Source: a virus
Lineage: Duplodnaviria > Caudoviricetes
Reading direction: 5' to 3' (one strand)
DNA: 31,520 nt
Virus record (IMG/VR): IMGVR_UViG_3300042448_001346
Location: 1 to 31,520 of that record
The position numbers were made by a program, and so were the translations under genes. How positions within the stretch are numbered: position 1 is the first letter of the stretch; each line of letters opens with the position of its first letter. The notes under the pieces were generated by a model. It did no database searches. It was given only the letters and a program-made list of their open reading frames with translations, and was not told the origin of the DNA. Below are positions 4,648 to 31,060 of the stretch, piece by piece.

Positions 4648-4813
4648 CCTTGTCAGCTTTCAACACACCCGCTTGAGGTTTAGGAACACCAATGTGTTTC
4701 TTAATTAAGTTTTCTACTAAACTTCCCATTTTGAACCCGTGTTCTTCACAATAATTTTTGAGAAGTTCATGGGTTTCTTTTTTGATTTGTAGCATTGAGT
4801 ATTTCATAACCAT
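4628..4813 (-). CDS. Small ribbon-helix-helix/CopG-like DNA-binding protein
   Basis: 61 aa; strand-helix-helix pattern YSMLQIKKETHELLKNYCEEHGFKMGSLVENLIKKH; has its own upstream ATATTTATA motif on the - strand; fills the gap between two large genes. Confidence 0.65.
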   Translation of the reverse strand: MVMKYSMLQIKKETHELLKNYCEEHGFKMGSLVENLIKKHIGVPKPQAGVLKADKVRSQSY

Positions 4814-4814
4814 T

Positions 4815-4854
4815 TTAGTTTTCTTTAGTTTAATAAAGTATTTGTTAGTTTTCT
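4815..4854. repeat. 10-bp-phased direct repeats (TTAGTTTTCT), putative operator
   Basis: TTAGTTTTCT at 4815-4824 and 4845-4854, TTAGTTT at 4825-4831; AGT core at 4817, 4827, 4837 and 4847. Confidence 0.55.
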
Positions 4855-4857
4855 AAA

Positions 4858-10900: not shown

Positions 10901-11023
10901 AAAATTATGGGAGAATATTTAACTATAAACTACAACGAATTAATTCCCGTAATGGTTAAGCAAATTCAAAATTTGAAAAAAGAATTAGAAGATGTAAAAA
11001 AGGTTTTAGCTAATGGCAAGTAA
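4919..11023 (+). CDS. Large tail fibre/spike protein with C-terminal peptidase S74 intramolecular chaperone
   Basis: 2034 aa, S/T/G/N-rich beta repeats, short collagen-like GxxGxxG runs, C-terminal SDRRLKKDI...YGFIAQDVQKIYP...INYNELIPVMVKQIQNL plus coiled coil starting at nt 10730. Confidence 0.85.
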   Translation: MALLKKTLFDEKLETYNVLVEDTAPFSNYFKITELSDVFTGGKNAFLIQGSPELVADSLIKIQIKDSQGNTIYNEPGEGIPEYYEGTSKVVAVYIYPDTSFGPCTITILGELKEYYSNNGVLNPVPGNWEGTYNVRWQKQINVNPLLQNTSKIRFYRRPKVAIEETILPIYNRSVNRKTISGSVDGVSINPLAGANFKTFKGDTLYELRISGSSFSSSMEGETITITNLNQSYSTTIKDVITSNKANATIPYYETSSVTSPQIIKNFSSASFSLAYNESVTLTNSSVSSSFAKIKLTDLEAFSGDVNRLRIYASRKADIGNYTLLEDIQLESNELLQTDEYSGSVNIRTGVFSSQNIVNEFWVYKDYDSSTNYTATLNNTDLVSSVKLLDDGIQNTSDYPQRIFYYSSSLDLLKNTEYQLDFTPILSSSLYGNNIIEIYGSGSAFVNLGSNIGLGKNIGKLVTNSQFIRYDKQQVNFKTDADGTGTIVFAVYQGNWQLSNISLRATQETNFSPNEITLNVAVPTKVKNDTFDFKFEFYDINNNYVPVSLNQEFTFTGGNDLVVRKSITVTPDGNLFSFSGSGESIGVSSINFDIVKVGLTGSTIFYSSAFDENGDYIQPSVYGSQPFYPGLLTNITSGSATLTVSNFTGSLTTPKVTRILYTASCEDVQDLVNIYRVDQGANGQDGIDGSDGATFIVIANKNQFVYDPDNHFEPAQSNDFIDIKLSSNIVSGSLTIASGSFLPKLQKLSTTQVGFYTESVYRIYSGDDDEDVAMLGTNAASWSYYTPTNLIHGGTYLFTQNGFSSSVQIEGVLKGDKSKNLNAVSNANQFFYKMTDVSLSPSGQAITIDVKRNNLGSTSNAITVTSGSGKPALTVGSNNGTTGVQSYNVNGADYPYSAGATTYTFFAEDLNFDGYTDTITITPVIAESQIAVNLTNENTTFPAYSGGSVFGGFLASSGSISVKVGSEDISYASTIGNNKFSASISSSLNVTPVLTNNNYSITALSADSGSINLKVTYRDGRGSDSVFTKLVTYSKAKAGTPNVLVAVSPSAQTISANSKGSGSATPIALTVTALEAGTSRFTSIGTPTFTNGLAGSVSSNVITITSDASTITSNTAQVTIPVNYTDSEGATGTKNVVATVSKALASAPSTIVFIEKDGQTITKSKTGTYGTPSSFRINVLEGANSSSYDNTSPFANSTFRISGVTNGSVSATDLDKYATITPTTPSSTSGLVVSITGSFVDSEGSTTSFFKTHNVNVASDGTDGSTGATGPGIVLRGEWKNNTLYYYTTVAGSSRRDAVYKSVSGVTHYWATLVQHTSETGVKELPAVSNDNTYWQYLGEQDFFVAAKIAIFDESYVKNTLNVGTNSDGSAANITLKGGTTSPYVSIGQGTQGYGNNGIWLGIVSATTPKVSFVSGSNYFKYDASATNMVDIGGRISATSLTADTGSIGGFEIQGGLLQAGSTTSGIQLNGTTSTIIVGNLSTNSSARVSPAGFFAGNTSFGSAPFSVNLDGALVATNADVRGKITATQGTIGGWVISQNSISKNRVTLNAGESDAENYIQITGTPGGSFAGNRVYIHPGELTDISGGSGNAIAATNASSYVNISSANTIYAGNSSTTATMGTSSQTVTSLSTSSTFNLIAKLKFKIDVVYESVPVTQVLNETNTRSYYSIDYAAGQMAWSTLVDDGAVNLTTARPEWGWIPQSDNTAVFNFLNQMNAAMGTNITSIQQMENEITGWTITTALSYMNGSIGVNSAMTYKTTSGGTTVSTFTPNSQITSEELPEVTYTVNSTGNGTTGPSFAITKSNTLQSVYRRVTWRGGRYNINFTGYGGSSTNYQGYAIWAETEGGFVSTPSSVTYSAKTTSLTANALTKQVELSEAGMQAVFNATNSSEGNYFRVSDVGTPTISNFNIKSAGFFAHYGEMHVKGDIAGFSTALSSDRRLKKDIVDIEDTEIEDMDKLHPVTYSWKDDENNNKHYGFIAQDVQKIYPHLTKTKIMGEYLTINYNELIPVMVKQIQNLKKELEDVKKVLANGK

Positions 11024-14000
11024 TATTAAATTAGGTGATTTAGGAACTTCAGCTGGATTAAATACGGCAACAACAACTGTAAGTGGTTCTTATGTTGCTA
11101 CTATATTTTTAACGGGTTCTATTGGGGGTGGTGTAAGAGATTTACCAGATACTCCAGGAACATTATCAGGTACATCCGCTAGACCTTATGGACAACAATA
11201 TGAATTTATAGAATTTGATGGAAAAATTCCAACGGTTACAATTATATCAATTGCTAGTCCGGATACATCTGACTCTAATAGTGGTAAAAAAATTACTTGG
11301 GAATATTCAATCGCAGGTATGCTTGCTGGGGAAACTGCAAGATTAAAAATATTTGTAAATGGTTCAGATACAGGTGAATATTATAATATAAATGGAAATG
11401 TTGGACTTGCTAATGGAGTGTATGTTGATACTGCTAATTCGTATGTAGTTCCAAACTCCATTAATACTTTAAAATTAGTATTAAATATAAATTCATCAAA
11501 TAAGACGGGAAATGATAGTAAGACTGTATATGTTTATCCATTAGATTTAACAATAACATCTATAACGCAAACACCATCCCTAAGTGGAACTACTACATAT
11601 AATTACACAACGGGTTCAATTTCATTTAATGCAAATGTAGCAGGTGGTATTTCACCATACATTTATAATTGGAATAGTGGAGCAAGTTCTGCTAATCCAT
11701 ATTCATTTAATAACGCATCAACTGTAACCGATAAACAAATAACATTAGTTGTAACGGATTCTCATACTCCAACTGCGGATACCGCTAATGGAACGAGTTT
11801 ACCTATAATGAGGAGACCTGTATCGGTAAGTATTTCTAATGCATCGATTAGTGAACCATATGTAGATTATACATTAGATTCTACTGTAAATTATAATGTT
11901 CAAGGATTAAATATTTCATATGACTGGGTTGTAGGAAGCGGTACTGGTTATAAATTTGGATACGCATCTAATGATGCAGACCCAATTGTATATTATTCAA
12001 CATTAGGTGCAAAAACTCATAGAGTTAGTATAAGTTCATTTGAAAACGCATCAATTAGAAATCATATTACATCTAATACTACTGTGCAAGTTTCACCAAC
12101 CGCAAATGTAAGTGTAACATATGCGCCTGGAACTGAAACTTGGTCTGCCACATTTGATAGTGTAGTAGCAGCTTCCTATGGTTCAAGAACTTATGAATAT
12201 CAAGCCCGTTCAAAAGATGCAGGTGGAACATATACGGATTGGGGTGGTAGTGTAACTGTTTCATCTAATTCAATTTCTGCTCAATCATTTGCAGGAAAAA
12301 CAAATACTGCACAATATGTTCAAATTAGAGTAAGAGTTAGAAGAACATATACTCCGGACAGTTTTAATGAAGTTTCTACTTGGGTAGAATCAAACGAAGC
12401 ATTAGTTCCGCAAAAGGGTATTGTTAATATGGATAATCAAACTAATCTATTAACAGGTGGAGATAGAAGTTTTGATGGTAGTGTTACAATTGGCGGAGTA
12501 GCTGATACGGGATATAATACTCCAACAATAACGGCAGTTACTACGGGTGGTACTGTTACTGCTACCATTAGTAAACCTTCTTCTAATGTTGTTAGAGTGG
12601 TTGTTAATAATCCATGTACAAATGTAAATGATGGAACGGCTAGCCATGTTATATCTTTAAAAGATGGTAATGGTTATAATCTAACTAAATCTTTTACAAC
12701 TCAATATAAAATAAGTTCTACATCTATAAATTTAACTACTACTTGGGTAAATGGTAATTATTATAATGGAGCGAGTAATTCTATTGCAAATAGCTTAGCA
12801 CAATACTCATTTACATTAAATTCATTTGCTTATAAAGTTGGAGCTGGTTCATACACCACATTAAATAGTGGTAATATGAGTAGTTCGTATTCACATACTT
12901 ATACTGCACCCACTTCAGACCAGACTTGGACTTATAGAATTGTTGCTAGTGGGGGAACATATACGACATCGGATACAGCAGAAACTTCTTTGACCGTATA
13001 TGGATATCCTGGACAATCTTATGGTTATTCGGTTGCAGGTGTTCCATCATCTGGTACATTATCTCAAGTGGGTAGTGTTGTAGCAAGAGTAAGTAGAAGT
13101 AGTGGTAATTTCGCAAAAATATCAGTAGATAGTTATTATGTAACTAGACCTACGGGAACAAATGTATCACCTGCTGGTAAATCGGAAGCAAGTATCACCG
13201 ATTCAGCAACTAGCTTTGATTCAGCTACATTTTCATTATACGATTCGGCAGAATGTGGTAATAATGTAACGGGTATAGCAACTTTAATGGCTTATTTAAA
13301 ATATGAAATCGATGCATCGAGATATTATTTACATCAACTAATATCTTCAGGTGTATCTGTTTTAAATGAACCACCAAGCCTAACCTCTACATTAATTAGT
13401 GGTATTACAAGTGATTATGCAATTAGAGGAAATATTATAACACACGAGATTTCATATTCTTCATATGGTCCTCCAATAGCAGGTTATTACGATTTTAATG
13501 GTACATTTTATGATAATTCTGCGTACGCATATCTTTCTCAAAATACAAATCCATCGAGTTTTTCAGGTATAACAGTCAATGATGAAAATTCACCAGATTC
13601 ACCTTCAATTGGATATTACCGAATAGCTACCGATGGGACATTTTGTAGAAAGACTAGAAATTTATCATTTGAATACACACCAACTTCAGGCCAGGTAGGT
13701 ACTAATATAACATTGAATTATTATGCAAGAGAATACCAAATAGATGAAAATCAAATTTATGAAGGGCCTGGCTTATTTACTTATTTATATGATTATTATT
13801 TTGATGGAAGTGAAGCAACTTTAACTTCTACAAAAACATATAGCGTTAGAGGAAGAAGATTAGGTACTAGCGGTAATTCTTGGAGTATTGTAATTTATGT
13901 AAGCAAAGGATATAGTGATTTACAATTTGGATTGGGTAGTGGTACATTAACAGGACCTGATGGAGCTATTGATTATTATAATGGAAATTTAGATGCTTTA

Positions 14001-15899
14001 ACATATGTTTATCAAAGATATAATGGAAGTAGTTGGGTAGATATCGCTGGTTCATCTTACGATCCAGGTACATTCGGAACTACTTTAGTTAGAGTTAAAT
14101 TTACAGATACATGGGGTAATACATTTGCATCAGGCGAACAAAGTGCAACTACTTCGGATTTAGATTATACATTTAATGTAACTAATGAAGGCGGCCAGCC
14201 TACTGTATATGCTTATGTTGGTCCTGGTCAATCTAGTGCACCTGTTATATTAACTCCAGGATTTACCGATAAAAGAGCCATATGGTCAACTGGAACAAAT
14301 ATCAGTATTGATAATATGACTGTAGATGATTATGTTATAGTATATGAACATAATGTATCCGGTATGGATGAGAAGGGAACATATTCTAATTTTCCAGGTG
14401 CATATACTACCATAAGTGTATCTGTTACAGCAGGTAGTACTCCTACATATGGAATGTTTAGAACATTTACTTATACACTTAGTACTAATCAACAAGTAAT
14501 AGCAACTAGAGATTATGCCGGAAGTCCTTATGCAAACGCAACTGGCACAGATATATTAGGTATTAAATCATTTCAAATGTTTAATTCCGGTGATAACATA
14601 GGAAATGCTACTTTATTTGGCACAGGTGGTATTAGTGGTAACTTTAGATTGATGGCATTATTAAGAGCACCATCGGTATATGATGCAACTGCTACATATA
14701 CATTGCATGGACAAAAAGCTTCAAACAATACACAACAAGGTACAGACTATTATGTAGTGTTAAAGACAAGAGGTGTTCAAAATATTGTTAATATATTAAC
14801 TCAAACGGGTCAATGTGGTGGAATATATGTAGAATATAGAACGGGTCAAATAGATACCGCAACAAGATTGATTATTCAAGAAAGTACGGATAATTCTACA
14901 TTTACAAATACTTCATACAATTATAATGGTATATCAGCAAATACTACATACAATGCATTTATAACCGTAACAGGAAATTCAACAAAATATTATAGAGTAA
15001 TATTACAAAATAGTGCTGGTACTACTTTGGTTACTGGTACATCATATCCGTACACAAATTACGCAGCAGGTGCAGCCGGTACTTATGTTTTTTTAAATGT
15101 AGAGTCTGGTTGCTTCTCATTTACATATAGAGTTAATAGACCTTCTGGAGGTAATTCTAATAGTAACTCTTATTATGCTATTTCTTGGGCAGCTACAGAT
15201 GGATATGGTAATGTTACCACTTCAATTACATCCGATTCCGGCCGTGCATATGGTACTACTTACTCTCTTAGTTTATTTGGGTTTCCATGTGATGTACAAA
15301 TATATGTTACTATAACACCTTATTCGGCAACAGGTTGTGAGGGTACATCGGCTGGTACACTTGAAGTTGTGCATAAATCTGATTCGTATAGTAGTTTATG
15401 TGCTTGTTCTGGTGGAGATGGTTGTTTAGTATATGGTACAAAAGTTTTAATGTATGATGGCTCTTTAAAAAATGTTGAAGATTTAGTTATAGGAGATATT
15501 GTTAAGAGTATGTCGATTAATGGGTTAAATGCTGGACAGGAATTTGCTTGGCAAAACTTTTCTACAAATAATTTTGAATATGAAGAAGGTTTATCTATCA
15601 TATATGATATTAATGATAATTCATTCAATCAATATTATGTATTTAATAATAGATTAAGAGCAACATATGAACATCCTATATTTATAAAGAGAGGTGATAT
15701 TTGTATGTTTGAACCTGCTGAAAATGTAACAATTGGAGATTATATGTTTACATCTGATAATGAATTTGAAATAATTACATCAATTGATATAATAGATGAG
15801 AGTGTACAAACTATTAATATAAACATAGAAGAAAATGATGTATATTTTGCAGATGGTATATTAGTTCATAATTTTGCTCAACCAAAAGACCAAGCTTAA
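11013..15899 (+). CDS. Large virion structural/adhesin-like protein with C-terminal Hint (intein-like) domain
   Basis: 1628 aa, S/T/Y/G-rich beta-sandwich-like body; Hint motifs G|CLVYGTKV (Cys at 15423), ATYEHP and YFADGILVHN (Asn at 15870-15872). Confidence 0.8.
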   Translation: MASNIKLGDLGTSAGLNTATTTVSGSYVATIFLTGSIGGGVRDLPDTPGTLSGTSARPYGQQYEFIEFDGKIPTVTIISIASPDTSDSNSGKKITWEYSIAGMLAGETARLKIFVNGSDTGEYYNINGNVGLANGVYVDTANSYVVPNSINTLKLVLNINSSNKTGNDSKTVYVYPLDLTITSITQTPSLSGTTTYNYTTGSISFNANVAGGISPYIYNWNSGASSANPYSFNNASTVTDKQITLVVTDSHTPTADTANGTSLPIMRRPVSVSISNASISEPYVDYTLDSTVNYNVQGLNISYDWVVGSGTGYKFGYASNDADPIVYYSTLGAKTHRVSISSFENASIRNHITSNTTVQVSPTANVSVTYAPGTETWSATFDSVVAASYGSRTYEYQARSKDAGGTYTDWGGSVTVSSNSISAQSFAGKTNTAQYVQIRVRVRRTYTPDSFNEVSTWVESNEALVPQKGIVNMDNQTNLLTGGDRSFDGSVTIGGVADTGYNTPTITAVTTGGTVTATISKPSSNVVRVVVNNPCTNVNDGTASHVISLKDGNGYNLTKSFTTQYKISSTSINLTTTWVNGNYYNGASNSIANSLAQYSFTLNSFAYKVGAGSYTTLNSGNMSSSYSHTYTAPTSDQTWTYRIVASGGTYTTSDTAETSLTVYGYPGQSYGYSVAGVPSSGTLSQVGSVVARVSRSSGNFAKISVDSYYVTRPTGTNVSPAGKSEASITDSATSFDSATFSLYDSAECGNNVTGIATLMAYLKYEIDASRYYLHQLISSGVSVLNEPPSLTSTLISGITSDYAIRGNIITHEISYSSYGPPIAGYYDFNGTFYDNSAYAYLSQNTNPSSFSGITVNDENSPDSPSIGYYRIATDGTFCRKTRNLSFEYTPTSGQVGTNITLNYYAREYQIDENQIYEGPGLFTYLYDYYFDGSEATLTSTKTYSVRGRRLGTSGNSWSIVIYVSKGYSDLQFGLGSGTLTGPDGAIDYYNGNLDALTYVYQRYNGSSWVDIAGSSYDPGTFGTTLVRVKFTDTWGNTFASGEQSATTSDLDYTFNVTNEGGQPTVYAYVGPGQSSAPVILTPGFTDKRAIWSTGTNISIDNMTVDDYVIVYEHNVSGMDEKGTYSNFPGAYTTISVSVTAGSTPTYGMFRTFTYTLSTNQQVIATRDYAGSPYANATGTDILGIKSFQMFNSGDNIGNATLFGTGGISGNFRLMALLRAPSVYDATATYTLHGQKASNNTQQGTDYYVVLKTRGVQNIVNILTQTGQCGGIYVEYRTGQIDTATRLIIQESTDNSTFTNTSYNYNGISANTTYNAFITVTGNSTKYYRVILQNSAGTTLVTGTSYPYTNYAAGAAGTYVFLNVESGCFSFTYRVNRPSGGNSNSNSYYAISWAATDGYGNVTTSITSDSGRAYGTTYSLSLFGFPCDVQIYVTITPYSATGCEGTSAGTLEVVHKSDSYSSLCACSGGDGCLVYGTKVLMYDGSLKNVEDLVIGDIVKSMSINGLNAGQEFAWQNFSTNNFEYEEGLSIIYDINDNSFNQYYVFNNRLRATYEHPIFIKRGDICMFEPAENVTIGDYMFTSDNEFEIITSIDIIDESVQTININIEENDVYFADGILVHNFAQPKDQA

Positions 15900-16360: not shown

Positions 16361-17770
16361 ATGGTACATAAATTGGGAATATGCATTCCATATAGGAATA
16401 GAGAAACTCATTTAAAAACTCTAATTCCACATCTTACAAAGTTTCTTAATAAAAAAGGTATTGAACACTCTTTTTATATAGCTCATCAAACCGATGATAA
16501 GTTATTTAATAGAGGAGCAATGAAAAACATTGCAGCTAAACATGCATTTGATGATGGGTGCGATTATGTAGCATTTCACGATGTGGATATGTTGCCTGAA
16601 AACGATAATTGTGATTATTCGTATCCAAATGAATTACCAACGCATATTTCTACAAAACTTTCAAAATACAAATATAAATTAAATTATGAACAATATTTTG
16701 GTGGAGTTGTATTATTTACAAAAGAGCAAGTTGTAAAAACCAATGGTTATTCAAATGATTATTGGGATTGGGGAATGGAGGATGATGATTTATTTTGGAG
16801 ATGTATATTTGAAAATATGGTAGATACGCATATATTTGCAAAATACACAAATAAATCGTATTTTAGTTTTAATGGAAATGATTCATATATTCAGATACCA
16901 AAAGATTTAGGGTTACATTCAGTTTTATCTAATTCGCATACTATTTCAATATTATGTAGTGTTGATAATCAGTCGGAAAAATATAATTATTGGTTAGTAG
17001 GAGATGAATCTAAATCGTTTATAGAGTATCCTATTTTTAGAAGTAATAGTAAAGATGGATATGGAATTGGATTTAATAATTCTAGAGCAATATGTTCTTC
17101 CATTAGAAACTCTAACAATCATTTTAACTATGGGTGGATTAAGCGTAATTTTAATGAATGGACTTGGATAACATTATCACTTGATTCGGAATCTAAAAAT
17201 ATATATTTTTATTGTAATAATAAACTTATAAAGAATACAACAAATGGAGTAGTAGAAGAAAGCTATTCTAATTATGAGGGCACATTAAAGAAAATAGATT
17301 CAGATTTTTACATAGGAAAAAATTCAGATATAACTACTGATATGATAGCTCCATTTTTAAAAGGAAAAGTAGCAGAAGTTAAAGTTTGGGATAAGTTTTT
17401 TAAAAAAGAAGAAATAGAAGATATTGTATTAAAAAATAAAGAAACTCCATATTTTGAATTATCAACTAGCAATACTAATGTAAATTATTTCAATGTAGTT
17501 AAAGGGGTTGAAACTTTTGATGTGATTAATAATATAATTCCATATCGTAGAGAGGGTAGGTTTCTTTCTTTACCACACATTGATGAAGGATTTGTAAATG
17601 GAAAATGGGCTAAAGGAGAAACTACTGCTAAAAATGAACGAAGATTTTTTTTAGAAATGAAAAAAGAAAAATTGAATTATAAAGAGGATGGTATAGCTCA
17701 AATTAAATACGATTTAGTATCAAAAGAGCAAATATCAGATAATGCTTGGATGATAAATGTAAAACTTTAA
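16361..17770 (+). CDS. Glycosyltransferase family 7 (beta-1,4-galactosyltransferase-like) with inserted LamG/ConA-like domain
   Basis: IPYRNR, FNRGAMKN, FHDVD, YFGGV, NGYSNDYWDWGMEDDDL; LamG-like segment from FSFNGNDSYI to KGKVAEVKVWD; GT7 C-terminus resumes at RREGRFLSLPH. Confidence 0.85.
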   Translation: MVHKLGICIPYRNRETHLKTLIPHLTKFLNKKGIEHSFYIAHQTDDKLFNRGAMKNIAAKHAFDDGCDYVAFHDVDMLPENDNCDYSYPNELPTHISTKLSKYKYKLNYEQYFGGVVLFTKEQVVKTNGYSNDYWDWGMEDDDLFWRCIFENMVDTHIFAKYTNKSYFSFNGNDSYIQIPKDLGLHSVLSNSHTISILCSVDNQSEKYNYWLVGDESKSFIEYPIFRSNSKDGYGIGFNNSRAICSSIRNSNNHFNYGWIKRNFNEWTWITLSLDSESKNIYFYCNNKLIKNTTNGVVEESYSNYEGTLKKIDSDFYIGKNSDITTDMIAPFLKGKVAEVKVWDKFFKKEEIEDIVLKNKETPYFELSTSNTNVNYFNVVKGVETFDVINNIIPYRREGRFLSLPHIDEGFVNGKWAKGETTAKNERRFFLEMKKEKLNYKEDGIAQIKYDLVSKEQISDNAWMINVKL

Positions 17771-17844: not shown

Positions 17845-17853
17845 ATATTTATA
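17845..17853 (+). promoter_or_regulatory. ATATTTATA promoter-like motif
   Basis: ATATTTATA ends 3 nt before ATG 17857. Confidence 0.55.
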
Positions 17854-17856: not shown

Positions 17857-20800
17857 ATGAATATAAAAGAAATAGATAAACCTGAAATTAAAAAAGTAGT
17901 AGTAGTTTACGCTGGTAGATTTCAACCCTTCCATAAAGGACATTATGCTACTTATCAGAAATTAGTTTCTAAGTTTGGTGCAAATAATGTTTACATAGGA
18001 ACTTCTAATGATACTTCAGGACCAAAATCTCCTTTTAATTTTAATGAAAAGAAAACTATAATGACTAAAATGTTTGGTATATCTCCAAATAAAATAGTTC
18101 AAGTAAAAAACCCATATGCACCAAAAGAAATTTTAAGTGGTATGGATGGAAAGACTACTGCCTATGTTGCAGCAGTTGGACAAAAAGATGCAGATAGATT
18201 AGCAGGTAAATATTTTAAACCATATAATGGTAAGACTGGATATGGTTATGATGAAATTGGTTATGTTTATGCAGTTCCTGCGGAAGATAACGCTATAAGT
18301 GGAACTGATGTTCGTAATTGGTTAAGTAAAGGCGATGATAAAGATAAACAAAAAGGATTTACGAAAGCATATCCAAAATTTGACAAAGATATATTCAATA
18401 TGATAACAGGTAAATTAAATGAAGAACTATACAAAGGCTACCCTTCAGAAGAACAAGTAAAAGATATCGAAAGAAAAAATAAAGAATTTAGAAATTCACC
18501 TGAATCAACTTCAGATGATGAATATCTTTATGACCCAATTGCAGAATTAATTGGTAGAGCTGCAATGGAAGAAATGTTTGAAGAATTTACTAGAACATAT
18601 TTTAACGAAGAATCTGAAGCAGAGAAAATGGGATTAACCCATTTAGGTGGTGGGTATTATGGTAAAGAGGGGCAACCGGCTACCCACAAATCAGATAATG
18701 GTAAAATTCGTACATTAACTCCAAAAGAAATTGATGCAGTTAAGAAAAAAGCAATGTCTAAAGGGCCTTCCGATGCACCTGTTAACGAACCTAAGCCATC
18801 TCAACCAGGTCAGCCTGTTAATAAAGGAGCAACTGCACAGGGTAAAGTAGATAAGAAAAAAGAAGAACCAACTGCAGATAAAAAAGGTGGAGCAGATACT
18901 GGAAAACAAGCACCTCCTCCTGAGCAAAAATTAAGTGGAGCAGAATTAAAATCTTCTGCCGAAATGACTGATGGGGATAAGAAAAAAGCAGAAGTAAAAG
19001 AGAAATTACACCAAGCTATGGCTGATTTATCAGATGATGAGAAAAAAGCAGCTGAAGATACTAACAACCCTGAATCTGAAACTAGAAAAGGTTGGTATGA
19101 AAAATTAAATGATTGGACTGGAGATAAATTACATAAGGTTGGTAAAGCAGTTGGGCATGTTATTGCACATAAAGTAGACCAATATAAAGAATTTGGTAAA
19201 GGAATGTACTCAATAGCAACTTCAGGTAAATTGGGTACTATTAAAGACGAAAAAACTGGTAAAAAAGTAAATTGGTCTGATTATACTCAAGAAGGTGATA
19301 AGGGGTTTTTTGGAAATATGAAGCCTAAAATGCAAGAAGTTCCTGTTTATAAAAAAGATAGCCATGGACACGATGTACATGACGAAGAAGGTAATCCCGT
19401 TCAAGCTAAAGATTGGAGAGGTAGACCTAAAACTACAAAAGAACCTGTATTCAGAGAAGATTTATCTCCAAGAGAAAAAGCATTAGCAAAGAAATCTTGG
19501 TACGAAAGAAGTGAGCAATTAAAAGGAATAAAAGGAACAGCAATGGATGCCGCTGTTATGTGTGCTAGTATGGCAGTGGCTGGAGCTGGAGTAGGAGCTT
19601 TAGCAGCTAAAGGAATCGGTACAACTGCAAATGTAACCGCATATGCAGGTCAAACCATTGGACAAGCAGCAACACACGGTGCGGCTAGTGCATTTACACA
19701 TGGAGCATTAGGATTTAGTACACATTTAGGTAAAGATATGGTTAAGCATGTTGCGTTTGAATCTGTTGGAGCTGGCGCATTACAAGCAGGTGGTGGTGGT
19801 GCTGTATTGAGCGTTGTAACGGGTGGTATTTTGGAAGCCATAGATGATAAATCAAATCAACCAAATCCACAAGATATGATGATGAACCTAATAAAGAAAA
19901 TAGGTGAGAGAATGGGAACATATAAGATGACCGATGAACAAATGTTGGCATCTATTGAATCATATAAAAAAAACAAACCTGAATCTGATTTAAAAAATGC
20001 AGCAATGGATTTGATGAAAGAGGATATTTCAGAATCAAAACAACAATCAATTCAGAATTTTGTAGAGTTTGCAACTAAAAGATTAAAATTAAAAGAAACA
20101 CCAAATATTACATTAGTTGGTGGTAGAGAGTTTGCAGAAGTAAAAACATCATTGGGTGGATATAATCCAGATGATAAATCAATATATGTAGCAACCGAAG
20201 GTAGATTAACTGCTGATATTTTAAGAACACTTGCACATGAAATGGCTCATAGAAAGCAAGATGAGATGGGATTGGTTACAAATGCAGAAACCGATGGAGC
20301 AGATGGTTCTCCAATAGAAAACAAAGCACATGCAGTAGCTGGAATCTTAATGAGAGAATATGGTAGAATCAACAAACAAATTTATAATGAAGATATCAAT
20401 GTAGATGTTGATAAGGGTGATACTGTTTTAATGGGTAAGTTTAAAAACAAAAAAACTACCGTTAAAGATATTGGAACTGATGACTATGGGATGCCAACAA
20501 TCAACGGAAAGAAAGCAACTACATTCAGAATTCCAAGAGGTGAAGAGAAATCTAATCCACAATCAGTATTCAATGAAGTAGGTCCAAACGATTGGCATTT
20601 TAAAGCAATTATGAAGATGTGGGATACCGCTGGTTCATTTGGTAGAAAGAAAATTGGAGTGGTAGTATGTAACGACCCAAAGGCTGATAGAAACGATGTA
20701 GCTAGAAAGTTAAGAAACTACGGATATAAAGAAGTTACCCATGTTACTGATAAGTTGGGATTAGACGAAAAAAAAAATCTAAATGAATTAACACAAGGTT

Positions 20801-22221
20801 TATTCGCAGGTAAGGTTAAGATAGGCGGACAGCCGGTTGAAATTGAAGTAGAATTATTAGGAGTAGATAATAAAACAAAAGAATTTATAACAAAAGTAAT
20901 TCATATTGATAAAAAATATCAAAGTAAATTACCAATAGGCTCTACATTCAAAATTCCCGCAAGAATATTCAGAATGCCAGGCGGTGGTTGGCACAAAATC
21001 AAATCATCTGCATTTAAAGAATCCCTAAACGAAGGTGGAGCATATGGACATATGTCACATCCATTTGATGATATGGATTTAACTTTTGGTGATTTAAAAA
21101 AGATTATCAAAGGAGCATTAACTGGTAATTTAGAATTGACAAGAGAAAAAACCGATGGACAAGCATTGGCAATTAGTTGGAAGAATGGTAGATTAATTGC
21201 AGCTAGAAATAAATCACATTTACAAAATGCCGGAGCAGGGGCAATGGGAATTGAAGATGTAGCATCAAAGTTTGGTGGTAGAGGTGGATTAACCGATGCA
21301 TATAACTTCGCTATGAAAGATTTATCCGTAGCAATTCAATCACTTTCGGAAGCACAACGAAAAAAGATATTTGATGAAGGAAAATGTTTTATGAATTTGG
21401 AAGTAATATGGCCAACTTCGGTAAATGTAATTCCTTATGGACAGGCTTTATTAGTATTCCATAATACAACTTGTTACGATGAAAAGGGTTCTGCGATTAG
21501 TGCAAATCAGGGAGCAGCAACTATGTTAGCAGGAATGATTAAGCAAGTGAACGCTGATGTTCAATCAAAGTATACAATACAAGGTCCACCTGTAACAGAA
21601 CTACCTAAAAAAGAGGAGTTAAGTTCAAAACAAACAAAGTACCTTACTCAATTACAAAAGATACAATTTCAGTTCCAATTATCCGATAAAGATGGTGTAT
21701 CTGAATATCATCAAGCATGGTGGGAAGATTTTGTAAATAAATCAAAAGTTAAATTACAAAAATTAGAAAAGGAAGCATTAGTAAGAAGATGGGCATTTGG
21801 TGATAAATCATTCCGTTTAAATACTATTGCTGATAAAGATGCTCAAAGTTGGGCAATTGAAAATGATAAAGTAAATGTAGCTAAACAACAAAAAGATAAT
21901 GTTAGACAATTTGAAGAAATATTTTTGGGTGTTGGGGCAGATGTTCTTTCATTTATGGGTTCAGTATTAACTGTAAATCCAGATGCAGCTGTTCGTAGTA
22001 TGAAAGATAGATTAAAATCAACTGCTGAAAAAGTTAGAGGTAGTGGTGATATATCTAAAATAGCTAAATTAAAAATGGAATTAAGTAGATTAGCTAGTAT
22101 TGGTGGTAAAGATAAAATAGTACCAAACGAAGGTATTGTATTTGTTTATAAAGGTAATACATATAAACTAACAGGTACATTTGCACCACTAAATCAGATA
22201 TTAGGTATATTTTACGAATAA
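17857..22221 (+). CDS. Multidomain protein: HxGH nucleotidyltransferase + Gly-zipper region + HExxH metallopeptidase + small modules + ligase-like nucleotidyltransferase (DUF6267-like); putative head-packaged polyprotein
   Basis: GRFQPFHKGH and ISGTDVR (cytidylyltransferase/NMNAT-like); TLAHEMAHRKQ...E; EKTDG, NLEVI, EGIVF and YKLTG (ligase motifs I, III, IV, V); modules separated by LNE/FNE/YNE/ILE/ISE. Confidence 0.8.
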   Translation: MNIKEIDKPEIKKVVVVYAGRFQPFHKGHYATYQKLVSKFGANNVYIGTSNDTSGPKSPFNFNEKKTIMTKMFGISPNKIVQVKNPYAPKEILSGMDGKTTAYVAAVGQKDADRLAGKYFKPYNGKTGYGYDEIGYVYAVPAEDNAISGTDVRNWLSKGDDKDKQKGFTKAYPKFDKDIFNMITGKLNEELYKGYPSEEQVKDIERKNKEFRNSPESTSDDEYLYDPIAELIGRAAMEEMFEEFTRTYFNEESEAEKMGLTHLGGGYYGKEGQPATHKSDNGKIRTLTPKEIDAVKKKAMSKGPSDAPVNEPKPSQPGQPVNKGATAQGKVDKKKEEPTADKKGGADTGKQAPPPEQKLSGAELKSSAEMTDGDKKKAEVKEKLHQAMADLSDDEKKAAEDTNNPESETRKGWYEKLNDWTGDKLHKVGKAVGHVIAHKVDQYKEFGKGMYSIATSGKLGTIKDEKTGKKVNWSDYTQEGDKGFFGNMKPKMQEVPVYKKDSHGHDVHDEEGNPVQAKDWRGRPKTTKEPVFREDLSPREKALAKKSWYERSEQLKGIKGTAMDAAVMCASMAVAGAGVGALAAKGIGTTANVTAYAGQTIGQAATHGAASAFTHGALGFSTHLGKDMVKHVAFESVGAGALQAGGGGAVLSVVTGGILEAIDDKSNQPNPQDMMMNLIKKIGERMGTYKMTDEQMLASIESYKKNKPESDLKNAAMDLMKEDISESKQQSIQNFVEFATKRLKLKETPNITLVGGREFAEVKTSLGGYNPDDKSIYVATEGRLTADILRTLAHEMAHRKQDEMGLVTNAETDGADGSPIENKAHAVAGILMREYGRINKQIYNEDINVDVDKGDTVLMGKFKNKKTTVKDIGTDDYGMPTINGKKATTFRIPRGEEKSNPQSVFNEVGPNDWHFKAIMKMWDTAGSFGRKKIGVVVCNDPKADRNDVARKLRNYGYKEVTHVTDKLGLDEKKNLNELTQGLFAGKVKIGGQPVEIEVELLGVDNKTKEFITKVIHIDKKYQSKLPIGSTFKIPARIFRMPGGGWHKIKSSAFKESLNEGGAYGHMSHPFDDMDLTFGDLKKIIKGALTGNLELTREKTDGQALAISWKNGRLIAARNKSHLQNAGAGAMGIEDVASKFGGRGGLTDAYNFAMKDLSVAIQSLSEAQRKKIFDEGKCFMNLEVIWPTSVNVIPYGQALLVFHNTTCYDEKGSAISANQGAATMLAGMIKQVNADVQSKYTIQGPPVTELPKKEELSSKQTKYLTQLQKIQFQFQLSDKDGVSEYHQAWWEDFVNKSKVKLQKLEKEALVRRWAFGDKSFRLNTIADKDAQSWAIENDKVNVAKQQKDNVRQFEEIFLGVGADVLSFMGSVLTVNPDAAVRSMKDRLKSTAEKVRGSGDISKIAKLKMELSRLASIGGKDKIVPNEGIVFVYKGNTYKLTGTFAPLNQILGIFYE

Positions 22222-23594: not shown

Positions 23595-25202
23595 ATGATT
23601 CAAAATCAGCCAAAAAAGAATCTAAAAGATATCATTGCTGAAGAATATCGTAAGTCTGCAAACGACCCGATATACTTTATGAAAAAATATTGTGTCATCC
23701 AACATCCAACAAGAGGTAAGATACCATTTCATTTGTATCAATTTCAGGAAAATTGTTTAGATGATTTCAAAGATAATAGGTTCAATATAATTTTAAAATC
23801 CCGCCAGTTAGGTTTATCAACTCTATCGGCGGGCTTTATTCTTTGGAAGATGTTATTTAATCAGGACTATAATGCGTTGGTTATTGCAACTAAAGTAACT
23901 GTTGCAAAAAACTTAGTAGAAAAGGTAAGGGTTATGCACGATTTACTTCCAATTTGGTTGAGAGATGGTGGAAGCTCATCCGTTGAAGATAACAAACTTT
24001 CCCTTAAATTAAAAAATGGTTCTCAAGTAAAAGCTATTGCAAGTTCTCCAGATGCAGGTCGTTCTGAAGCCTTATCACTATTGGTAGTAGACGAGGCCGC
24101 ATTCATTAGAGATATTGATGAAATTTGGTTATCGGCACAATCAACCCTATCAACAGGTGGTTCGGCAATCGTATTATCTACACCAAATGGTATTGGTAAT
24201 TGGTTTCATAAAATGTGGGTAGATGGAGAAAGTGGTGCAAATGGTTTTAATTGTATTAACTTACATTGGACTGTACACCCTGAAAGAAATCAACAATGGA
24301 GAGATGAACAAACAAGAATTTTAGGAATTAAAGGAGCAGCACAGGAATGTGATTGTGACTTTGTTGGTTCTGGTGATACTGTAATCGACCCGGCATTATT
24401 GACTTGGTATAAAGATACATATGTGATGGAGCCAATAGAAAAAGCTGGGTTTGATGGGAATCTTTGGAAATGGGAATATCCAAATTACAATAAGTCATAT
24501 ATGGTTGTAGCCGATGTGGCGCGAGGCGATGGAGCCGATTATTCTACTGCCCAAGTATTAGATATTGAAGATTGTACCCAAGTAGCTGAATATAGAGGGA
24601 GATTGGATACAAAGGATTTTGGAAACTTCTTAGTAAGTTTAGCAACTGATTATAATAATGCATTACTTATTATAGAAAATGCCAATGTAGGTTGGTCAGC
24701 AATTCAACAAGTAATTAATAGAGCATATCCTAATTTATTTTATATGAGTAAGGATTTACAATATATTGATACTGAAAAACAAATGAGTAATAGGTATTAC
24801 AGAGATGAAAGAAATATGGTTGCTGGGTTTTCTACAACATCAAAAACCCGTCCTCTTATCATATCTACATTGGATACCTATATGAGAGAAAAAGATATTC
24901 TCATTCGTTCTAGCAGATTGATTGATGAAATGTTTACTTTTATTTGGAGTTCTGGTAGAGCTGAAGCTATGAAAAGTTACAATGATGACTTGATTATGGC
25001 ATTGGGAATTGGACTATGGGTTCGTAACACAGCGCTTAGATTGAAGCAAGAAGGGATTGATTTAACCAAAGCAATGTTGAATTCATCTACGGTTAAATCA
25101 TATGAAGAGGGGGTTTATACTAGCAATTGGCAAAAGGATAATCCATATGAAATGAAAATAGGTAATGGGGAAGTAGAAAATTTGAAGTGGTTGCTTGGAT
25201 AA
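23595..25202 (+). CDS. terL: Terminase large subunit (T4 gp17-like)
   Basis: FHLYQFQ Q-motif, KSRQLGLST, Walker B LLVVDEAAF, STPNG; RNase H-like nuclease DVARG..DYS, IENAN and NDDLIMA. Confidence 0.95.
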   Translation: MIQNQPKKNLKDIIAEEYRKSANDPIYFMKKYCVIQHPTRGKIPFHLYQFQENCLDDFKDNRFNIILKSRQLGLSTLSAGFILWKMLFNQDYNALVIATKVTVAKNLVEKVRVMHDLLPIWLRDGGSSSVEDNKLSLKLKNGSQVKAIASSPDAGRSEALSLLVVDEAAFIRDIDEIWLSAQSTLSTGGSAIVLSTPNGIGNWFHKMWVDGESGANGFNCINLHWTVHPERNQQWRDEQTRILGIKGAAQECDCDFVGSGDTVIDPALLTWYKDTYVMEPIEKAGFDGNLWKWEYPNYNKSYMVVADVARGDGADYSTAQVLDIEDCTQVAEYRGRLDTKDFGNFLVSLATDYNNALLIIENANVGWSAIQQVINRAYPNLFYMSKDLQYIDTEKQMSNRYYRDERNMVAGFSTTSKTRPLIISTLDTYMREKDILIRSSRLIDEMFTFIWSSGRAEAMKSYNDDLIMALGIGLWVRNTALRLKQEGIDLTKAMLNSSTVKSYEEGVYTSNWQKDNPYEMKIGNGEVENLKWLLG

Positions 25203-25214
25203 TCTATATTTATA
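25181..25214 (+). promoter_or_regulatory. Promoter-like element TTTG-N20-TATATTTA(TA)
   Basis: TTTG at 25181-25184, 20-nt spacer, TATATTTATA at 25205-25214, 17 nt before ATG 25232. Confidence 0.6.
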
Positions 25215-25231
25215 TGTTGAAACTCTTATAG

Positions 25232-26272
25232 ATGAACGAAGATTTAGATAAATGGTTTAAAGAAAAGTGGGTAAACATCGGCAAAAAAGTTGATGGTAAA
25301 CATCCACCATGTGGAACTTCGGGAGAAAAGAAAGGTTATGCTAAATGTGTTCCTGCGGCAAAAGCAGCTGGGATGAGTAAAAAAGAAAAAGAAAGTGCAA
25401 CTCGTAGAAAGAGAGATGCACAAAATGATGCAGGAAGAGGTGGTAAAGATAGTAGTGGACAAGGTAAAAAGCCAATATATGTTTCTACTAAACCAAAAAA
25501 TGAAGAATGGAGTGATAAATATAAAAGTAGTATAGATTGCAATAATCCAAAAGGTTTCTCTCAAAAAGCACATTGTGCAGGAAAGAAAAAAAATGAAGAT
25601 ATGAATATAGAAGAAAAACTAAATTTATTTTTAGAAAAGAATTGTCCAACTGACCCGGCAAAGTGGTCGGCATCTAAATCCGCAGCAAAATCTAAATTTG
25701 ATGTTTATCCATCTGCATATGCAAATGGATGGGCTGCAAAGAACTATAAATCAAAAGGTGGTGGTTGGAAAACTTGCAATGAGGGAGAAGCTAACGCATT
25801 ATGTGAAGATTGTTGGGATGGATATAAGCAAGTAGGAATGAAGGATAAAGGTGGAAAGCAAGTTCCAAATTGTGTTCCTATAAGTGAAGATATTGATTCA
25901 GATGATGATGTAAACTATGGTTTAGTTGAACCTGAAGAATATGATGTGGAAGATGAGGATATGGAAGATTTCATTTCTTTTATGAGAGCATATTCTAAAG
26001 ATTTAAGTGAAGCAAATTGTAATTGTGTTTATGAAGCAGAATATCAGGGTAGAAATGTTCAATTGGGTAAACCAATGGCAGGTGATGTTAAGAAATTCAA
26101 AGTTTATGTTAAAAATCCTGCCGGTAATGTTGTTAAAGTAAACTTTGGTCAAAAGGGAGTTAAAATTAAAAAGAATAATCCCGATAGAAGAAGAAGTTTC
26201 AGAGCAAGACACAATTGTGACCAACCAGGACCAAGACATAAAGCAAGATATTGGTCTTGCAGAAAGTGGTAA
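25232..26272 (+). CDS. Multi-module basic protein (DUF5872-like N-terminal and DUF6321-like C-terminal modules); putative head-packaged polyprotein
   Basis: Small phage modules LDKWFKEKWV..CG..KCVP, WSDKYKSSIDCNNPKGFSQKAHC, KFDVYPSAYANGW..YK..GGGW, CWDGYKQVGMK..VPNCVP and KFKVYVKNP..VNFG..SFRARHNC..YWSCRKW, separated by xxE motifs. Confidence 0.7.
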   Translation: MNEDLDKWFKEKWVNIGKKVDGKHPPCGTSGEKKGYAKCVPAAKAAGMSKKEKESATRRKRDAQNDAGRGGKDSSGQGKKPIYVSTKPKNEEWSDKYKSSIDCNNPKGFSQKAHCAGKKKNEDMNIEEKLNLFLEKNCPTDPAKWSASKSAAKSKFDVYPSAYANGWAAKNYKSKGGGWKTCNEGEANALCEDCWDGYKQVGMKDKGGKQVPNCVPISEDIDSDDDVNYGLVEPEEYDVEDEDMEDFISFMRAYSKDLSEANCNCVYEAEYQGRNVQLGKPMAGDVKKFKVYVKNPAGNVVKVNFGQKGVKIKKNNPDRRRSFRARHNCDQPGPRHKARYWSCRKW

Positions 26273-26274
26273 AA

Positions 26275-26308
26275 TTTGGTAATTTCAAAAATTTTACTTA
26301 TCTTTATA
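26275..26308 (+). promoter_or_regulatory. Promoter-like element TTTG-N20-TATCTTTA(TA)
   Basis: TTTG at 26275-26278, 20-nt spacer, TATCTTTATA at 26299-26308, upstream of the portal gene. Confidence 0.6.
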
Positions 26309-26326
26309 AATTAATATAAAATAAAA

Positions 26327-28066
26327 ATGGCAGATAAATCAATATTCGGTAGGTTACAAAAATTATTTTCAACAAACACCATTGTTCGTAAAACAAAAAA
26401 AGGTGTTAGAGTCATTGATACAGATGAATATCAATCAATGTCAACTAACCTTGTTGACCGTTTTATGAAAATGAAAACACCCGCATATAGTACTGGAATG
26501 CTTGAATCTGCAATGTCTTATCAACAAGTAAGAGCAGATTTATTCAGAGATTATGATTCAATGGATAACGACCCTATTTTATCTTCTGCTTTAAATATTT
26601 TTGCTGATGAATCAACTCCAAAGAATGAACATGGTGATGTATTAAGAATCAATTGTTCAAATGAAAATATTAAAAGTATTCTTCATAACTTATTCTATGA
26701 TATAATGAACATAGAATTTAACTTATGGCCTTGGGGTAGAAACTTAGTAAAATATGGCGATTTCTTTTTACAATTAGAAATTGCTCCAGAATTAGGTATT
26801 ATAAATATAGTACCAATGTCAGTATATGAAGTTAGTAGAGTTGAAGGATTTGATATGGAAAATCCACAAAGAGTAAAATTTGTTTATTCACCATATACCA
26901 ATCCATACGGAAGTACACAAGCTTCAAACAAAAAAGAATACGAAAATTATGAAGTAGCCCATTTCCGTTTATATTCGGATGCAAACTTCTTACCATATGG
27001 TAAATCAATGTTAGAAGGAGCTAGAAGAGTTTGGAAACAATTAACTCTTATGGAAGATGCGATGTTAATCCATCGTATTATGAGAGCTCCTGAAAAGAGA
27101 ATCTTTAAAATTGATGTAGGTAATATTCCACCAAATGAGGTAGATAATTACATGCAAAAAATTATAAACGCAAGTAAAAAGACTCCATTTGTTGATGCGG
27201 CTACTGGCGATTACAATTTGAAATATAATATGCAAAACCTTATTGAAGATTATTATATGCCAGTGCGTGGTAATGATAATGGTACTTCAATTGATACTCT
27301 AAAAGGTTTAGAATATAATATGGTGGATGACCTTAACTATTTAAAAAATAAGTTAATGGCTGCACTACATATTCCAAAAGCATATTTAGGATACGAAGAA
27401 GATATTAGTGGTAAAGCAACTCTTGCATCACAAGATGTTCGTTTTGCAAAAACAATAGAAAGAATTCAAAAAGTATTGGTATCTGAATTAACTAAGATAG
27501 CAATTGTTCACTTATATGCACAGGGATTAGATGATGCAGATGATTTAGATTTTTCTTTAGAATTAACAATCCCATCTAAAATTTATGAGCAAGAAAAAGT
27601 TGAATTATATACTTCAAAGGTAGCATTGATTCAGCAAATGCAACAAACTAAAATGTTTTCTAAAAAATGGATGTATGATACGGTAATGGATATGACTCCT
27701 GAAGAACAGGATGAATTAACATTAGATGTGTTGGATGATACTAAACAACAATTCCGTTTAACTTCTATTGAAACACAGGGTGTTGACCCTGCTAAACCAA
27801 CTGGTGCAGAAGGAGAGCCAACAAATGTTGAAGAAGAATTGGATAGATTAAAAACCGAATTGGAAACTGAAGGAGATGTTGGTAGACCAAAAGACCCGGT
27901 TAGATATGGTAAAGATGACCATCCATTAGGAAGAGACCCATTCGGTCAAAAATCTAATAAACAAAAAGAAGGTTCTGTCAAATATAAACCAAGAGAGAAT
28001 TACAAAGAAATTTTTAAGGATATGATGGGAAATAAAAAGACTATTTTGACAGAAGATTCTAAATAA
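26327..28066 (+). CDS. Portal protein (T4 gp20-like)
   Basis: YDSMDNDP, LMEDAMLIHRIMRAPEKRIFKIDVGNIP, EDYYMPVRG..GTSIDTLKG, ALHIPK; lies between terminase and prohead protease. Confidence 0.95.
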   Translation: MADKSIFGRLQKLFSTNTIVRKTKKGVRVIDTDEYQSMSTNLVDRFMKMKTPAYSTGMLESAMSYQQVRADLFRDYDSMDNDPILSSALNIFADESTPKNEHGDVLRINCSNENIKSILHNLFYDIMNIEFNLWPWGRNLVKYGDFFLQLEIAPELGIINIVPMSVYEVSRVEGFDMENPQRVKFVYSPYTNPYGSTQASNKKEYENYEVAHFRLYSDANFLPYGKSMLEGARRVWKQLTLMEDAMLIHRIMRAPEKRIFKIDVGNIPPNEVDNYMQKIINASKKTPFVDAATGDYNLKYNMQNLIEDYYMPVRGNDNGTSIDTLKGLEYNMVDDLNYLKNKLMAALHIPKAYLGYEEDISGKATLASQDVRFAKTIERIQKVLVSELTKIAIVHLYAQGLDDADDLDFSLELTIPSKIYEQEKVELYTSKVALIQQMQQTKMFSKKWMYDTVMDMTPEEQDELTLDVLDDTKQQFRLTSIETQGVDPAKPTGAEGEPTNVEEELDRLKTELETEGDVGRPKDPVRYGKDDHPLGRDPFGQKSNKQKEGSVKYKPRENYKEIFKDMMGNKKTILTEDSK

Positions 28067-30057: not shown

Positions 30058-30470
30058 ATGAAAATCTTGCGGTTGATATAATAGCCACTGTTGGTACTAT
30101 ATTAATTGCTAAGATTATTTTTTACTATATGATAGATTTGGCACAAAAAGGAATGAAATATTTCCAAGGTAACCAAAACTACAAAAAAGAGGTTAAACAA
30201 ATTTTAGATTCTATATCAAACGATAAGAAGACAATATCAGATATAGCTAAAATGGTTGACCCTAAAAAGGGAATTGATAATACAACTGTTGATAAAATTA
30301 TAAATTTACCATATGTAAAAACTCAAATAATAAAAATGAGTGATAAAACAAATGGTGAATTAAGTGAAACGGAATTAGAAAATCAATTAAAGACTATTAT
30401 ATTAAAGTCTTGGAATGATTCATCAATAACGGATAACGCTGTTGAAAAAGTTAAAAAGGATTTAAAATAA
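30045..30470 (+). CDS. Hypothetical protein; frame open upstream of the listed ATG (30129) back to the A10 run, probably the -1 extension of the preceding ORF
   Basis: Frame reads KKKVNE-NLAVDIIATVGTILIAKIIFYY-MIDLAQ... with no stop from 30045; includes a TM-like hydrophobic helix. Confidence 0.6.
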   Translation, partial: KKKVNENLAVDIIATVGTILIAKIIFYYMIDLAQKGMKYFQGNQNYKKEVKQILDSISNDKKTISDIAKMVDPKKGIDNTTVDKIINLPYVKTQIIKMSDKTNGELSETELENQLKTIILKSWNDSSITDNAVEKVKKDLK

Positions 30471-31060
30471 TGAATAAAGGATTATTAATAGAAACCCATT
30501 TGTTTGAAGCAAAACTTCAGCAAGAAGAAAATGGAACTTATTTAGTTAAGGGAATCCTACAAAGAGCAGGAGCCGCTAATCAAAATGGTAGAAGATATCC
30601 TAAAGAAATCTTAATAAGAGAATGTCAGAAATACGGACAACTCATTAAAGAAAGAAGAGCATTGGGTGAATTAGACCATCCAGATTCTCCCGTAATTAAT
30701 TTAAAGAATGTATCTCATAACATTAGAGAAATATATTGGGAGGGTGATGATGTGTGTGGTGTAGTAGAAATCTTATCAACTCCATCTGGCAATATTCTTA
30801 GAGAACTATTAAAAAATAATATTCGTTTAGGTATTTCATCAAGAGGGCTAGGTTCAGTTAAAGAATTGAATGATGGAACTGTAATGGTTCAGGAAGATTT
30901 TGAATTAGTAGGTTGGGATTTTGTTTCTAACCCATCAACACATGGAGCATTTATGGCACCTATGAATGAATCAAAGCATTGGAAGCAAGTAGCAGATGAG
31001 TGTGGTAAGTGGTGTAAGTCACAAGATTTAATGAGAGAAATTATAATAGAATTAAACTAA
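30470..31060 (+). CDS. Prohead core protease (T4 gp21-like)
   Basis: NQNGRRYP, ALGELDHP, NVSH, TPSGNIL, LGISSRGLGS and DFVSNPST. Confidence 0.95.
   Translation: MNKGLLIETHLFEAKLQQEENGTYLVKGILQRAGAANQNGRRYPKEILIRECQKYGQLIKERRALGELDHPDSPVINLKNVSHNIREIYWEGDDVCGVVEILSTPSGNILRELLKNNIRLGISSRGLGSVKELNDGTVMVQEDFELVGWDFVSNPSTHGAFMAPMNESKHWKQVADECGKWCKSQDLMREIIIELN

Follow-up and report, generated by a model that had tools for sequence, protein, structure and literature searches.

In bacteriophage T4 the prohead protease gp21, a member of family S77, cleaves after L/I-X-E (PMC9026906), and the head cargos IPI-IPIII and Alt shed terminal propeptides to give one mature product each (PMC9026906, PMC5694885). 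Alt is packaged with a six-residue leader (PMC5694885), and the leader of IPII and IPIII consists of ten residues ending in I-A-E. Here we describe a gene in a 31,520-nt stretch of viral DNA (IMG/VR record IMGVR_UViG_3300042448_001346, positions 1 to 31,520; hereafter the window), a record from a T4-like phage with a completeness of ~17%. The open reading frame (ORF; 17857..22221, plus strand, like all of its modules) encodes a 1454-aa protein that, judging from sequence comparisons and models, is probably a modular cargo polyprotein, packaged in the head and cleaved by the phage's own prohead protease. It resembles the T4 cargos in the S77 protease and the L/I-x-E rule, in the Glu-terminated leaders of its stand-alone module homologs, and in its own short, Alt-like leader. 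Unlike them, it strings about nine unrelated modules on one chain, has internal joints, and varies in its module set from phage to phage.

Two further systems bear comparison. The prohead proteases of SPN3US and phiKZ also cut after the Glu of a small motif, with several cuts inside long propeptides; however, at 13 of the 14 sites in SPN3US the cut takes off an N-terminal propeptide, the Glu belongs to an A-x-E motif, and the available text describes no release of unrelated enzymes from one chain (PMC10052503). The polyvalent proteins are large mosaics of unrelated domains encoded near virion genes, include a zincin, are proposed to be injected early, and are likened to polyproteins by their authors (PMC5512222). 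Our chain likewise has many biochemically disparate domains in one variable protein. Their release is proposed to depend on embedded peptidases rather than a prohead protease, and prohead-protease-type joints combined with a nucleotidyltransferase-plus-ligase core are not described in the available text, where the term "prohead protease" occurs once, in a reference title, and "cytidyl" is absent (PMC5512222). Among the polyvalent hub domains (MPTase, ArdC-N, ART, SNF2, MuF), the zincin was present in 17 of 150 representatives of the family described here, and Pfam found no other. A literature search, mostly of open-access papers without supplements, returned no description of cargo modules joined or exchanged at prohead-protease sites, and nothing on DUF6267 or Microcystis phage Mel-JY01.

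Joint motif and prohead protease

The initial annotation had proposed that the chain is divided at eight Glu residues, and all eight are found at the positions it gave: KLNE189, YFNE251, GILE660, DISE726, IYNE845, VFNE907, NLNE977 and SLNE1059. The [LFY]NE delimiter that it named fits six of these sites; GILE660 and DISE726 depart from it. [LFY]NE is nonetheless enriched over shuffled sequence (7 observed vs 0.61 expected in 2000 shuffles, p<=0.0005), and among the other 18 proteins of the window only tail fibre 1 approaches this enrichment (4 vs 0.97, p=0.019). When the 67 unique junction peptides from homologs were compared, P3 was hydrophobic (L/I/V/F/Y) in 66 and P1 was Glu in 60, with P2 variable. 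The joint motif is thus (L/I/V/F/Y)-x-E, broader than first described, and it includes an additional N-terminal site, NIKE5. One other [LFY]NE, NFNE64, sits inside the nucleotidyltransferase domain. Enrichment of the motif is by itself a poor means of recognising such proteins: in the complete relative G001, p<=0.01 on either pattern is reached by 7 of the 268 ORFs; the homolog of our chain is the sole ORF at the p floor on both.

The gp21-like protease reported in the annotation, the predicted cutting enzyme, is indeed encoded at 30470..31060 (plus strand; Pfam S77, 103 bits; T4 gp21, E=4e-17). It keeps the catalytic H70 and S124, aligned with the T4 ELNHP and VSSRG motifs, and its N-terminal L-I-E8 matches LIE-9 of T4 gp21. 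The joints match the T4 gp21 rule with a wider P3 that also admits V, F and Y. The window ends upstream of the capsid gene. In relatives, residues L-D-E59 of the major capsid protein immediately precede the position where its alignment with mature gp23 begins, which fits the same rule. The closest proteases from cultured phages are those of Mel-JY01 (58.6%) and Flavobacterium phage immuto (49.7%).

Module map of the chain

The chain begins with a five-residue leader ending in I-K-E5 (17857..17871), a predicted propeptide close in length to that of Alt and conserved in 10 of 17 close homologs. A hydrophobic-x-E was found in the leader of 61 of the 71 representatives that start with the nucleotidyltransferase, in many cases after a longer amphipathic leader. 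Module 1 (residues 6-189; 17872..18423) is an NMNAT-like nucleotidyltransferase of the HxGH (HIGH) family (PHROG 395, E=1.7e-16) and ends at KLNE189, a joint retained in 19 of 20 homologs. Module 2 (190-251; 18424..18609), an acidic, variable peptide with a variable start, ends at YFNE251 (joint kept in 10/10). Modules 3-4 (252-660; 18610..19836) consist of a basic peptide, a Pro/Lys-rich linker and a segment that closes with a hydrophobic, Gly/Ala-rich stretch; PVNE311 in the linker is poorly kept (3/12) and the terminal GILE660 well kept (6/6). An atlas match of 0.84 between this region and a PT-TG cluster serves as a lead only. The Gly/Ala-rich stretch itself (about residues 560-660; window 19534-19836) could insert into a membrane during ejection.

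The acidic helical peptide that forms module 5 (661-726; 19837..20034) ends at DISE726, a joint found in 8 of 16 homologs, with Asp or Pro at P1 in 7 of the 14 junctions listed. It is followed by module 6 (727-845; 20035..20391), an HExxH mini-zincin whose terminal IYNE845 is kept in 21/21, and by three small basic modules. Module 7 (846-907; 20392..20577; E907 kept in 19/20) changes position between phages; module 8 (908-977; 20578..20787; E977 kept in 20/27) is a helical domain that is tandemly duplicated in two relatives (L032 and L033); and module 9 (978-1059; 20788..21033) ends AFKE1055-SLNE1059, its E1059 joint being kept in 37/37. The remainder, module 10 (1060-1454; 21034..22218), is predicted to be a divergent covalent nucleotidyltransferase with an RNA-ligase fold, related to DUF6267.

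Structure models were made for residues 661-1081 and for module 10; the second fold alignment omitted four homologs (L014, L019, L058 and L062) and six misaligned module-9 fragments. In the 661-1081 model, the confidently modelled zincin (residues 726-838) and module 8 domain (predicted local distance difference test, pLDDT, 78-93 over about residues 911-970) begin just after and end just before joints, and modules 5, 7 and 9 have low confidence. This comparison of modelled domains with motif positions was one of the checks that the annotation had suggested, and it came out in favour of the proposed boundaries.

Modules are exchanged at the joints

The other suggested check, an alignment of homologs, showed modules gained, lost and reordered at the motif. 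From 69 loci we collected 71 homologous ORFs, 43 after redundancy reduction. Complete homologs reach 2026 aa; the first and last modules are common, and the middle changes. We then took 32 non-redundant homologs of at least 700 aa and scored long insertions and deletions with conserved flanks as breakpoints, which gave 110 events in 75 context classes. The pattern [LIVFY][NSKT]E, in which [NSKT] was picked after the data had been seen, occurs within 3 residues of the breakpoint in 38 of 75 classes (random mean 4.9, max 15), and the [LFY]NE pattern stated beforehand in the annotation does so in 10 of 75 (mean 1.1). The controls were not raised near breakpoints: [LIVFY]xD was found in 4/75 (mean 10.8) and non-hydrophobic-x-E in 19/75 (mean 23), and Lys was likewise not raised. 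Module order varies as well, with module 7 standing directly after module 1 in L051 and L058. Contigs whose match begins precisely at base 21031, in other words at the codon for E1059, were present in four lake metagenomes (3, 4, 5 and 8 contigs).

The last joint was also scored across distant homologs. Module 10 is matched at E<=1e-30 by 546 clusters. Among the best 150 of 1788 cluster representatives (50% clusters), 143 were scorable, seven having been left out where the match began late or at the protein start. The motif stands directly before module 10 in 113 of these 143, with 12 different P2 residues, and it persists to about 40% identity. Conservation of the sites that lie within module 10 is lower, at 9-56% of 74-85 aligned rows. 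At this same joint, 11 representatives (P0135, P0149, P0185, P0193, P0198, P0209, P0245, P0266 and others) have an in-frame zinc-finger and HNH-like module inserted exactly at the boundary, often with its own hydrophobic-x-E in front and with the joint Glu replaced by Cys or Ala; this insert is possibly a homing endonuclease riding on the polyprotein.

Stand-alone modules carry T4-type leaders

Three modules (6, 7 and 10) occur also as stand-alone genes, with short leaders of the T4 capsid-targeting type that terminate at the Glu of the joint. For module 7, 56 short Met-started homologs were found and 42 scored; in 30 of the 42 the leader ends in hydrophobic-x-E exactly at the module start (two of the 30 being polyprotein tails), and some of these leaders closely resemble that of T4 IPII/IPIII. 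Module 6 stands alone as Synechococcus phage B23 gp332, in which leader Glu9 aligns with E726, and module 10 likewise has a gene to itself in several representatives. In G001 a kinase-like module has a gene and leader of its own; elsewhere it is found in the interior of a chain, with the register unchanged. The simplest history of the chain would be one in which cargo genes with T4-type leaders fused, each leader's cut site becoming a joint. The cultured phage immuto (L092) encodes two similar chains (2132-4855 and 9007-11532), one with an HxGH domain and two HExxH motifs and the other with many hydrophobic-N-E joints. The homologs in cultured relatives have the accessions WWT39297 (Mel-JY01) and YP_010114595 and YP_010114604 (immuto).

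Predicted enzymes

Both catalytic signatures pointed out in the annotation are present, HxGH at H26 and HExxH at H794, each inside the module as it had been delimited. Module 1 matches the NCBIfam NMNAT models with E~1e-7, far under the cut-off for the NMN adenylyltransferase family (best 31.8 bits vs 127), and we place it in the HIGH superfamily only. It is homologous to the NMNAT-like proteins of cyanophages (PHROG 395), which share the HxGH domain and are reported from virions (PMC10665884, PMC9602691). These differ in size, being 286-591 aa long as against a 1454-aa chain with many more modules. The S-PM2 member also matches module 10 structurally (E=2e-5). Module 6, with HExxH on a zincin fold and structural matches to zincins at Z 8.8-7.3, is a predicted metallopeptidase.

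Module 10 has ligase motifs I (EKTDG, K1098), III (E1182), IV (E1425) and V (K1437), all conserved among homologs. Its model has a pLDDT of 94 with the first three residues loose, and model residue 1 aligns at T4 Rnl2 residues 3-4. The eight best structural matches are all RNA ligases (Z 9.0-7.3, root-mean-square deviation 3.8-4.8, 176-200 residues aligned); REL1 and Naegleria Rnl score Z 9.0 and T4 Rnl2 Z 8.4, the top rows being tied at Z 8.1-9.0 across ligase families. On this structural evidence we predict that module 10 is a divergent RNA-ligase-fold covalent nucleotidyltransferase. It shares fold and motifs I, III, IV and V with T4 Rnl1 and Rnl2, REL1, Naegleria Rnl and Trl1, but differs from them in having about 240 residues between motifs III and IV, in aligning over only about 190 of its 395 residues at a deviation of 4-5, and in lacking a sequence-level match. 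Whole-protein scans gave no Pfam match for this module, the best NCBIfam and PHROG E-values were 0.07 and 0.09, and when alignment A3 was searched against PDB profiles, nothing came up beyond nucleotidyltransferase-flank matches and noise. Its atlas clusters are 24% DUF6267. In one representative (P0235, about residues 738-878) an intein is inserted in module 10 near motif I.

Of the 105 representatives that are at least 750 aa long, 93 have module 1 together with module 10. Scans of selected more distant homologs (36 + 24 proteins) found as partner modules a CCA-adding/poly(A) polymerase head, HD, an AAA_33 kinase, 2H and a RegB-like domain. These match the parts list of phage RNA repair, and the kinase, 2H and CCA-adding modules of the relatives can be likened to jumbo-phage RNA repair (PMC7824862).

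Proposed packaging, cleavage and delivery

We propose that the chain would be loaded into the prohead core and cut at its joints by the gp21-type protease into about nine pieces, which would be ejected with the DNA, so that a fixed cargo set would enter in one packaging event. The masses predicted for the pieces are 20.5, 7.5, 43.3, 7.6, 13.2, 6.9, 8.0, 9.1 and 43.7 kDa. Once delivered, the piece with the ligase fold probably contributes to the repair of host-damaged RNA. Ejection is one of the least certain steps, as are the activities of the nucleotidyltransferase (NAD- or RNA-end-related) and of the small basic modules. A homolog of module 1, S-CREM2 gp154 (HHalign 83%, E=9e-6), begins with a T4-type leader; it was found in purified virions with 3 peptides (PMC10665884), and NMNAT-like proteins have been repeatedly reported in cyanophage virions (PMC9602691). 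The annotation had called the protein a capsid-packaged, cut and injected multi-enzyme cargo. The modules, joints, exchange, stand-alone forms and protease gene speak in part for that description; "multi-enzyme" applies to three of nine pieces, the only ones with a recognisable enzyme fold.

Several observations weigh against this proposal. The chain's own leader has just five residues and no capsid-targeting helix. There are 23 further hydrophobic-x-E sites in the chain (22 internal plus the terminal residue), of which the within-domain sites E64, E737 and E747 are fully conserved; overall, within-domain sites are conserved in 351 of 513 comparisons, some at 100%, vs 140 of 157 at joints. With so many conserved sites inside domains, the selectivity of cutting must come from folding, which would protect them. 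E726 is kept in only half of the homologs scored (8/16), and in T4 a P1 Asp prevents processing by gp21 (PMC9026906). The best breakpoint result depends on the [NSKT] class picked after the fact. In a second set of 178 more distant proteins (150 non-redundant), 152 of the 361 module starts coincided with the motif (mean 54, max 76), but per class the excess was modest (42/156; mean 23.5, max 40), and over all points non-hydrophobic-x-E was raised too (164/361; mean 117, max 146); we therefore regard this replicate as positive but weaker. Before module 10 the motif is missing in 30 of 143 representatives, 11 of them explained by the inserted HNH module and 19 unexplained. The ligase likeness of module 10 is structural only, with a best Foldseek E of 0.002, and HHalign of module 10 to T4 Rnl2, Rnl1 and DNA ligase was not significant (0.2-2.5%). 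The virion detection concerns a distant homolog and 3 peptides, and both papers allow for co-purification (PMC10665884, PMC9602691). In T4, multiply cut proteins are scaffold parts whose fragments mostly leave the head (PMC9026906). Packaging, cleavage and injection of the polyprotein itself are steps that we infer.

We considered three other explanations. The first, which we judge unlikely, is that the joints are relics of the fusion of leader-bearing genes, which still recombine at short A/T-rich "AATGAA"-like words, and that the protein is never cut, acting late and in the cytoplasm as an intact multi-domain enzyme. The five-residue leader and the 19 unexplained site losses before module 10 would fit such a history, as would the P1 codon, which is GAA in 103 cases vs GAG in 2 against a background of 3071:447 (the related sequences not being independent). 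However, P3 is encoded by 15 codon types and yet remains hydrophobic, with P2 and the Asn codons variable (AAT 36, AAC 17), the motif persists down to the 40% identity noted above, and module 1 homologs are present in virion proteomes. Direct repeats form at least 60 families, and among the 20 largest of these none pairs joints; a DNA repeat cassette at the joints was rejected on this ground.

Slightly more improbable still is that the chain is packaged and cut, but for head assembly or DNA condensation in the manner of T4 gp22, gp67 and gp68, its pieces exiting the shell or staying in it without delivery. In T4 it is core proteins of this kind that undergo cutting at many internal positions, their fragments mostly exiting (PMC9026906), and six of the pieces here lack a known enzyme fold, several of them being 7-9 kDa. 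Against this, three pieces keep full catalytic motifs, the cuts would fall between folds and not through them, relatives have a separate acidic scaffold gene before the capsid gene, and the partner modules are RNA-end enzymes. Finally, autoproteolysis by the embedded zincin, before packaging or after injection, is very improbable: Iyer et al. 2017 propose it for MPTases of polyvalent proteins (PMC5512222) and module 6 has the mini-zincin fold, but that module was detected in only 17 of 150 representatives, and the joint motif occurs generally and conforms to what gp21 cleaves.

Extending the proposal of a packaged chain cut by the prohead protease, we advance a broader one to which we give a little short of an even chance: that a large group of aquatic T4-like phages uses the capsid-maturation protease for polyprotein processing, and that exchangeable counter-defence cassettes with a new RNA-ligase family and a HIGH nucleotidyltransferase would be packed once, cut in the head and injected as an RNA-repair kit acting before phage gene expression. 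If true, a double-stranded DNA phage would follow a polyprotein strategy in which its head protease is the enzyme working in trans, and the site cut by that protease would at the same time define the unit in which modules are exchanged. Hundreds of giant phage proteins that lack annotation could then be divided at the motif into candidate injected effectors. The finding would also point to virion-delivered RNA repair and an unstudied ligase family, and would provide a natural blueprint for packing several proteins into a single capsid.

Genomic setting and other observations

The window holds tail-fibre genes, the polyprotein gene, and genes for a large terminase, a gp20-type portal and the S77 protease. 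The polyprotein gene thus adjoins virion and packaging genes: the terminase lies 1.4 kb downstream, followed by a second small-module protein (25232-26272) and the T4-type portal (together 23595..28066, plus strand), and then by the protease. The order terminase, portal, protease is the same in Mel-JY01. An assembly chimera is an unlikely origin for the ORF, since the protein was re-assembled in two other contigs (L001 and L002) at 100% and 99% identity. The gene was found in 20 listed DNA runs, 19 labelled lake water and 1 freshwater, and in no RNA run among those listed.

Upstream of the polyprotein gene lies TATTTATA (17846..17853, plus strand), a possible but weak late-promoter element. 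With copies at window positions 4889, 16335, 17846, 25207 and 28091 (plus strand), it precedes 5 of the 19 window genes, and 0 of 3 replication genes, by at most 60 nt; the distance is 25-30 nt for four genes and 11 nt for the polyprotein gene, and it is the identical 11 nt in G001, where the word lies upstream of 21 of 259 plus-strand genes. Over the whole window TATTTATA is not enriched (13 vs 9.6), and a sigma-70 scan gave no useful signal (13 vs 20.9).

The protein at 25232-26272, between terminase and portal, is also built as a chain of small modules, which are rich in Cys and Lys, and contains several xNE/xSE sites. It has two short segments in common with S-CREM2 gp160, a protein listed in the virion table (weak, E~5e-4). 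Elsewhere in the window, 1498-4647 encodes a single 1049-aa protein that is a fusion of SbcD and SbcC, the product of 4919-11023 has an S74 chaperone domain at its end, and the tail-fibre-like protein at 11013-15899 ends in a weak HINT domain match. The GT7 glycosyltransferase at 16361-17770 has a LamG domain after the catalytic Pfam segments. Among the relatives, Mel-JY01 (L091) has an annotated ribosomal protein S21 gene inside its head gene cluster (17184-17411), and the complete relative G001 carries 25 tRNA genes and a tmRNA.

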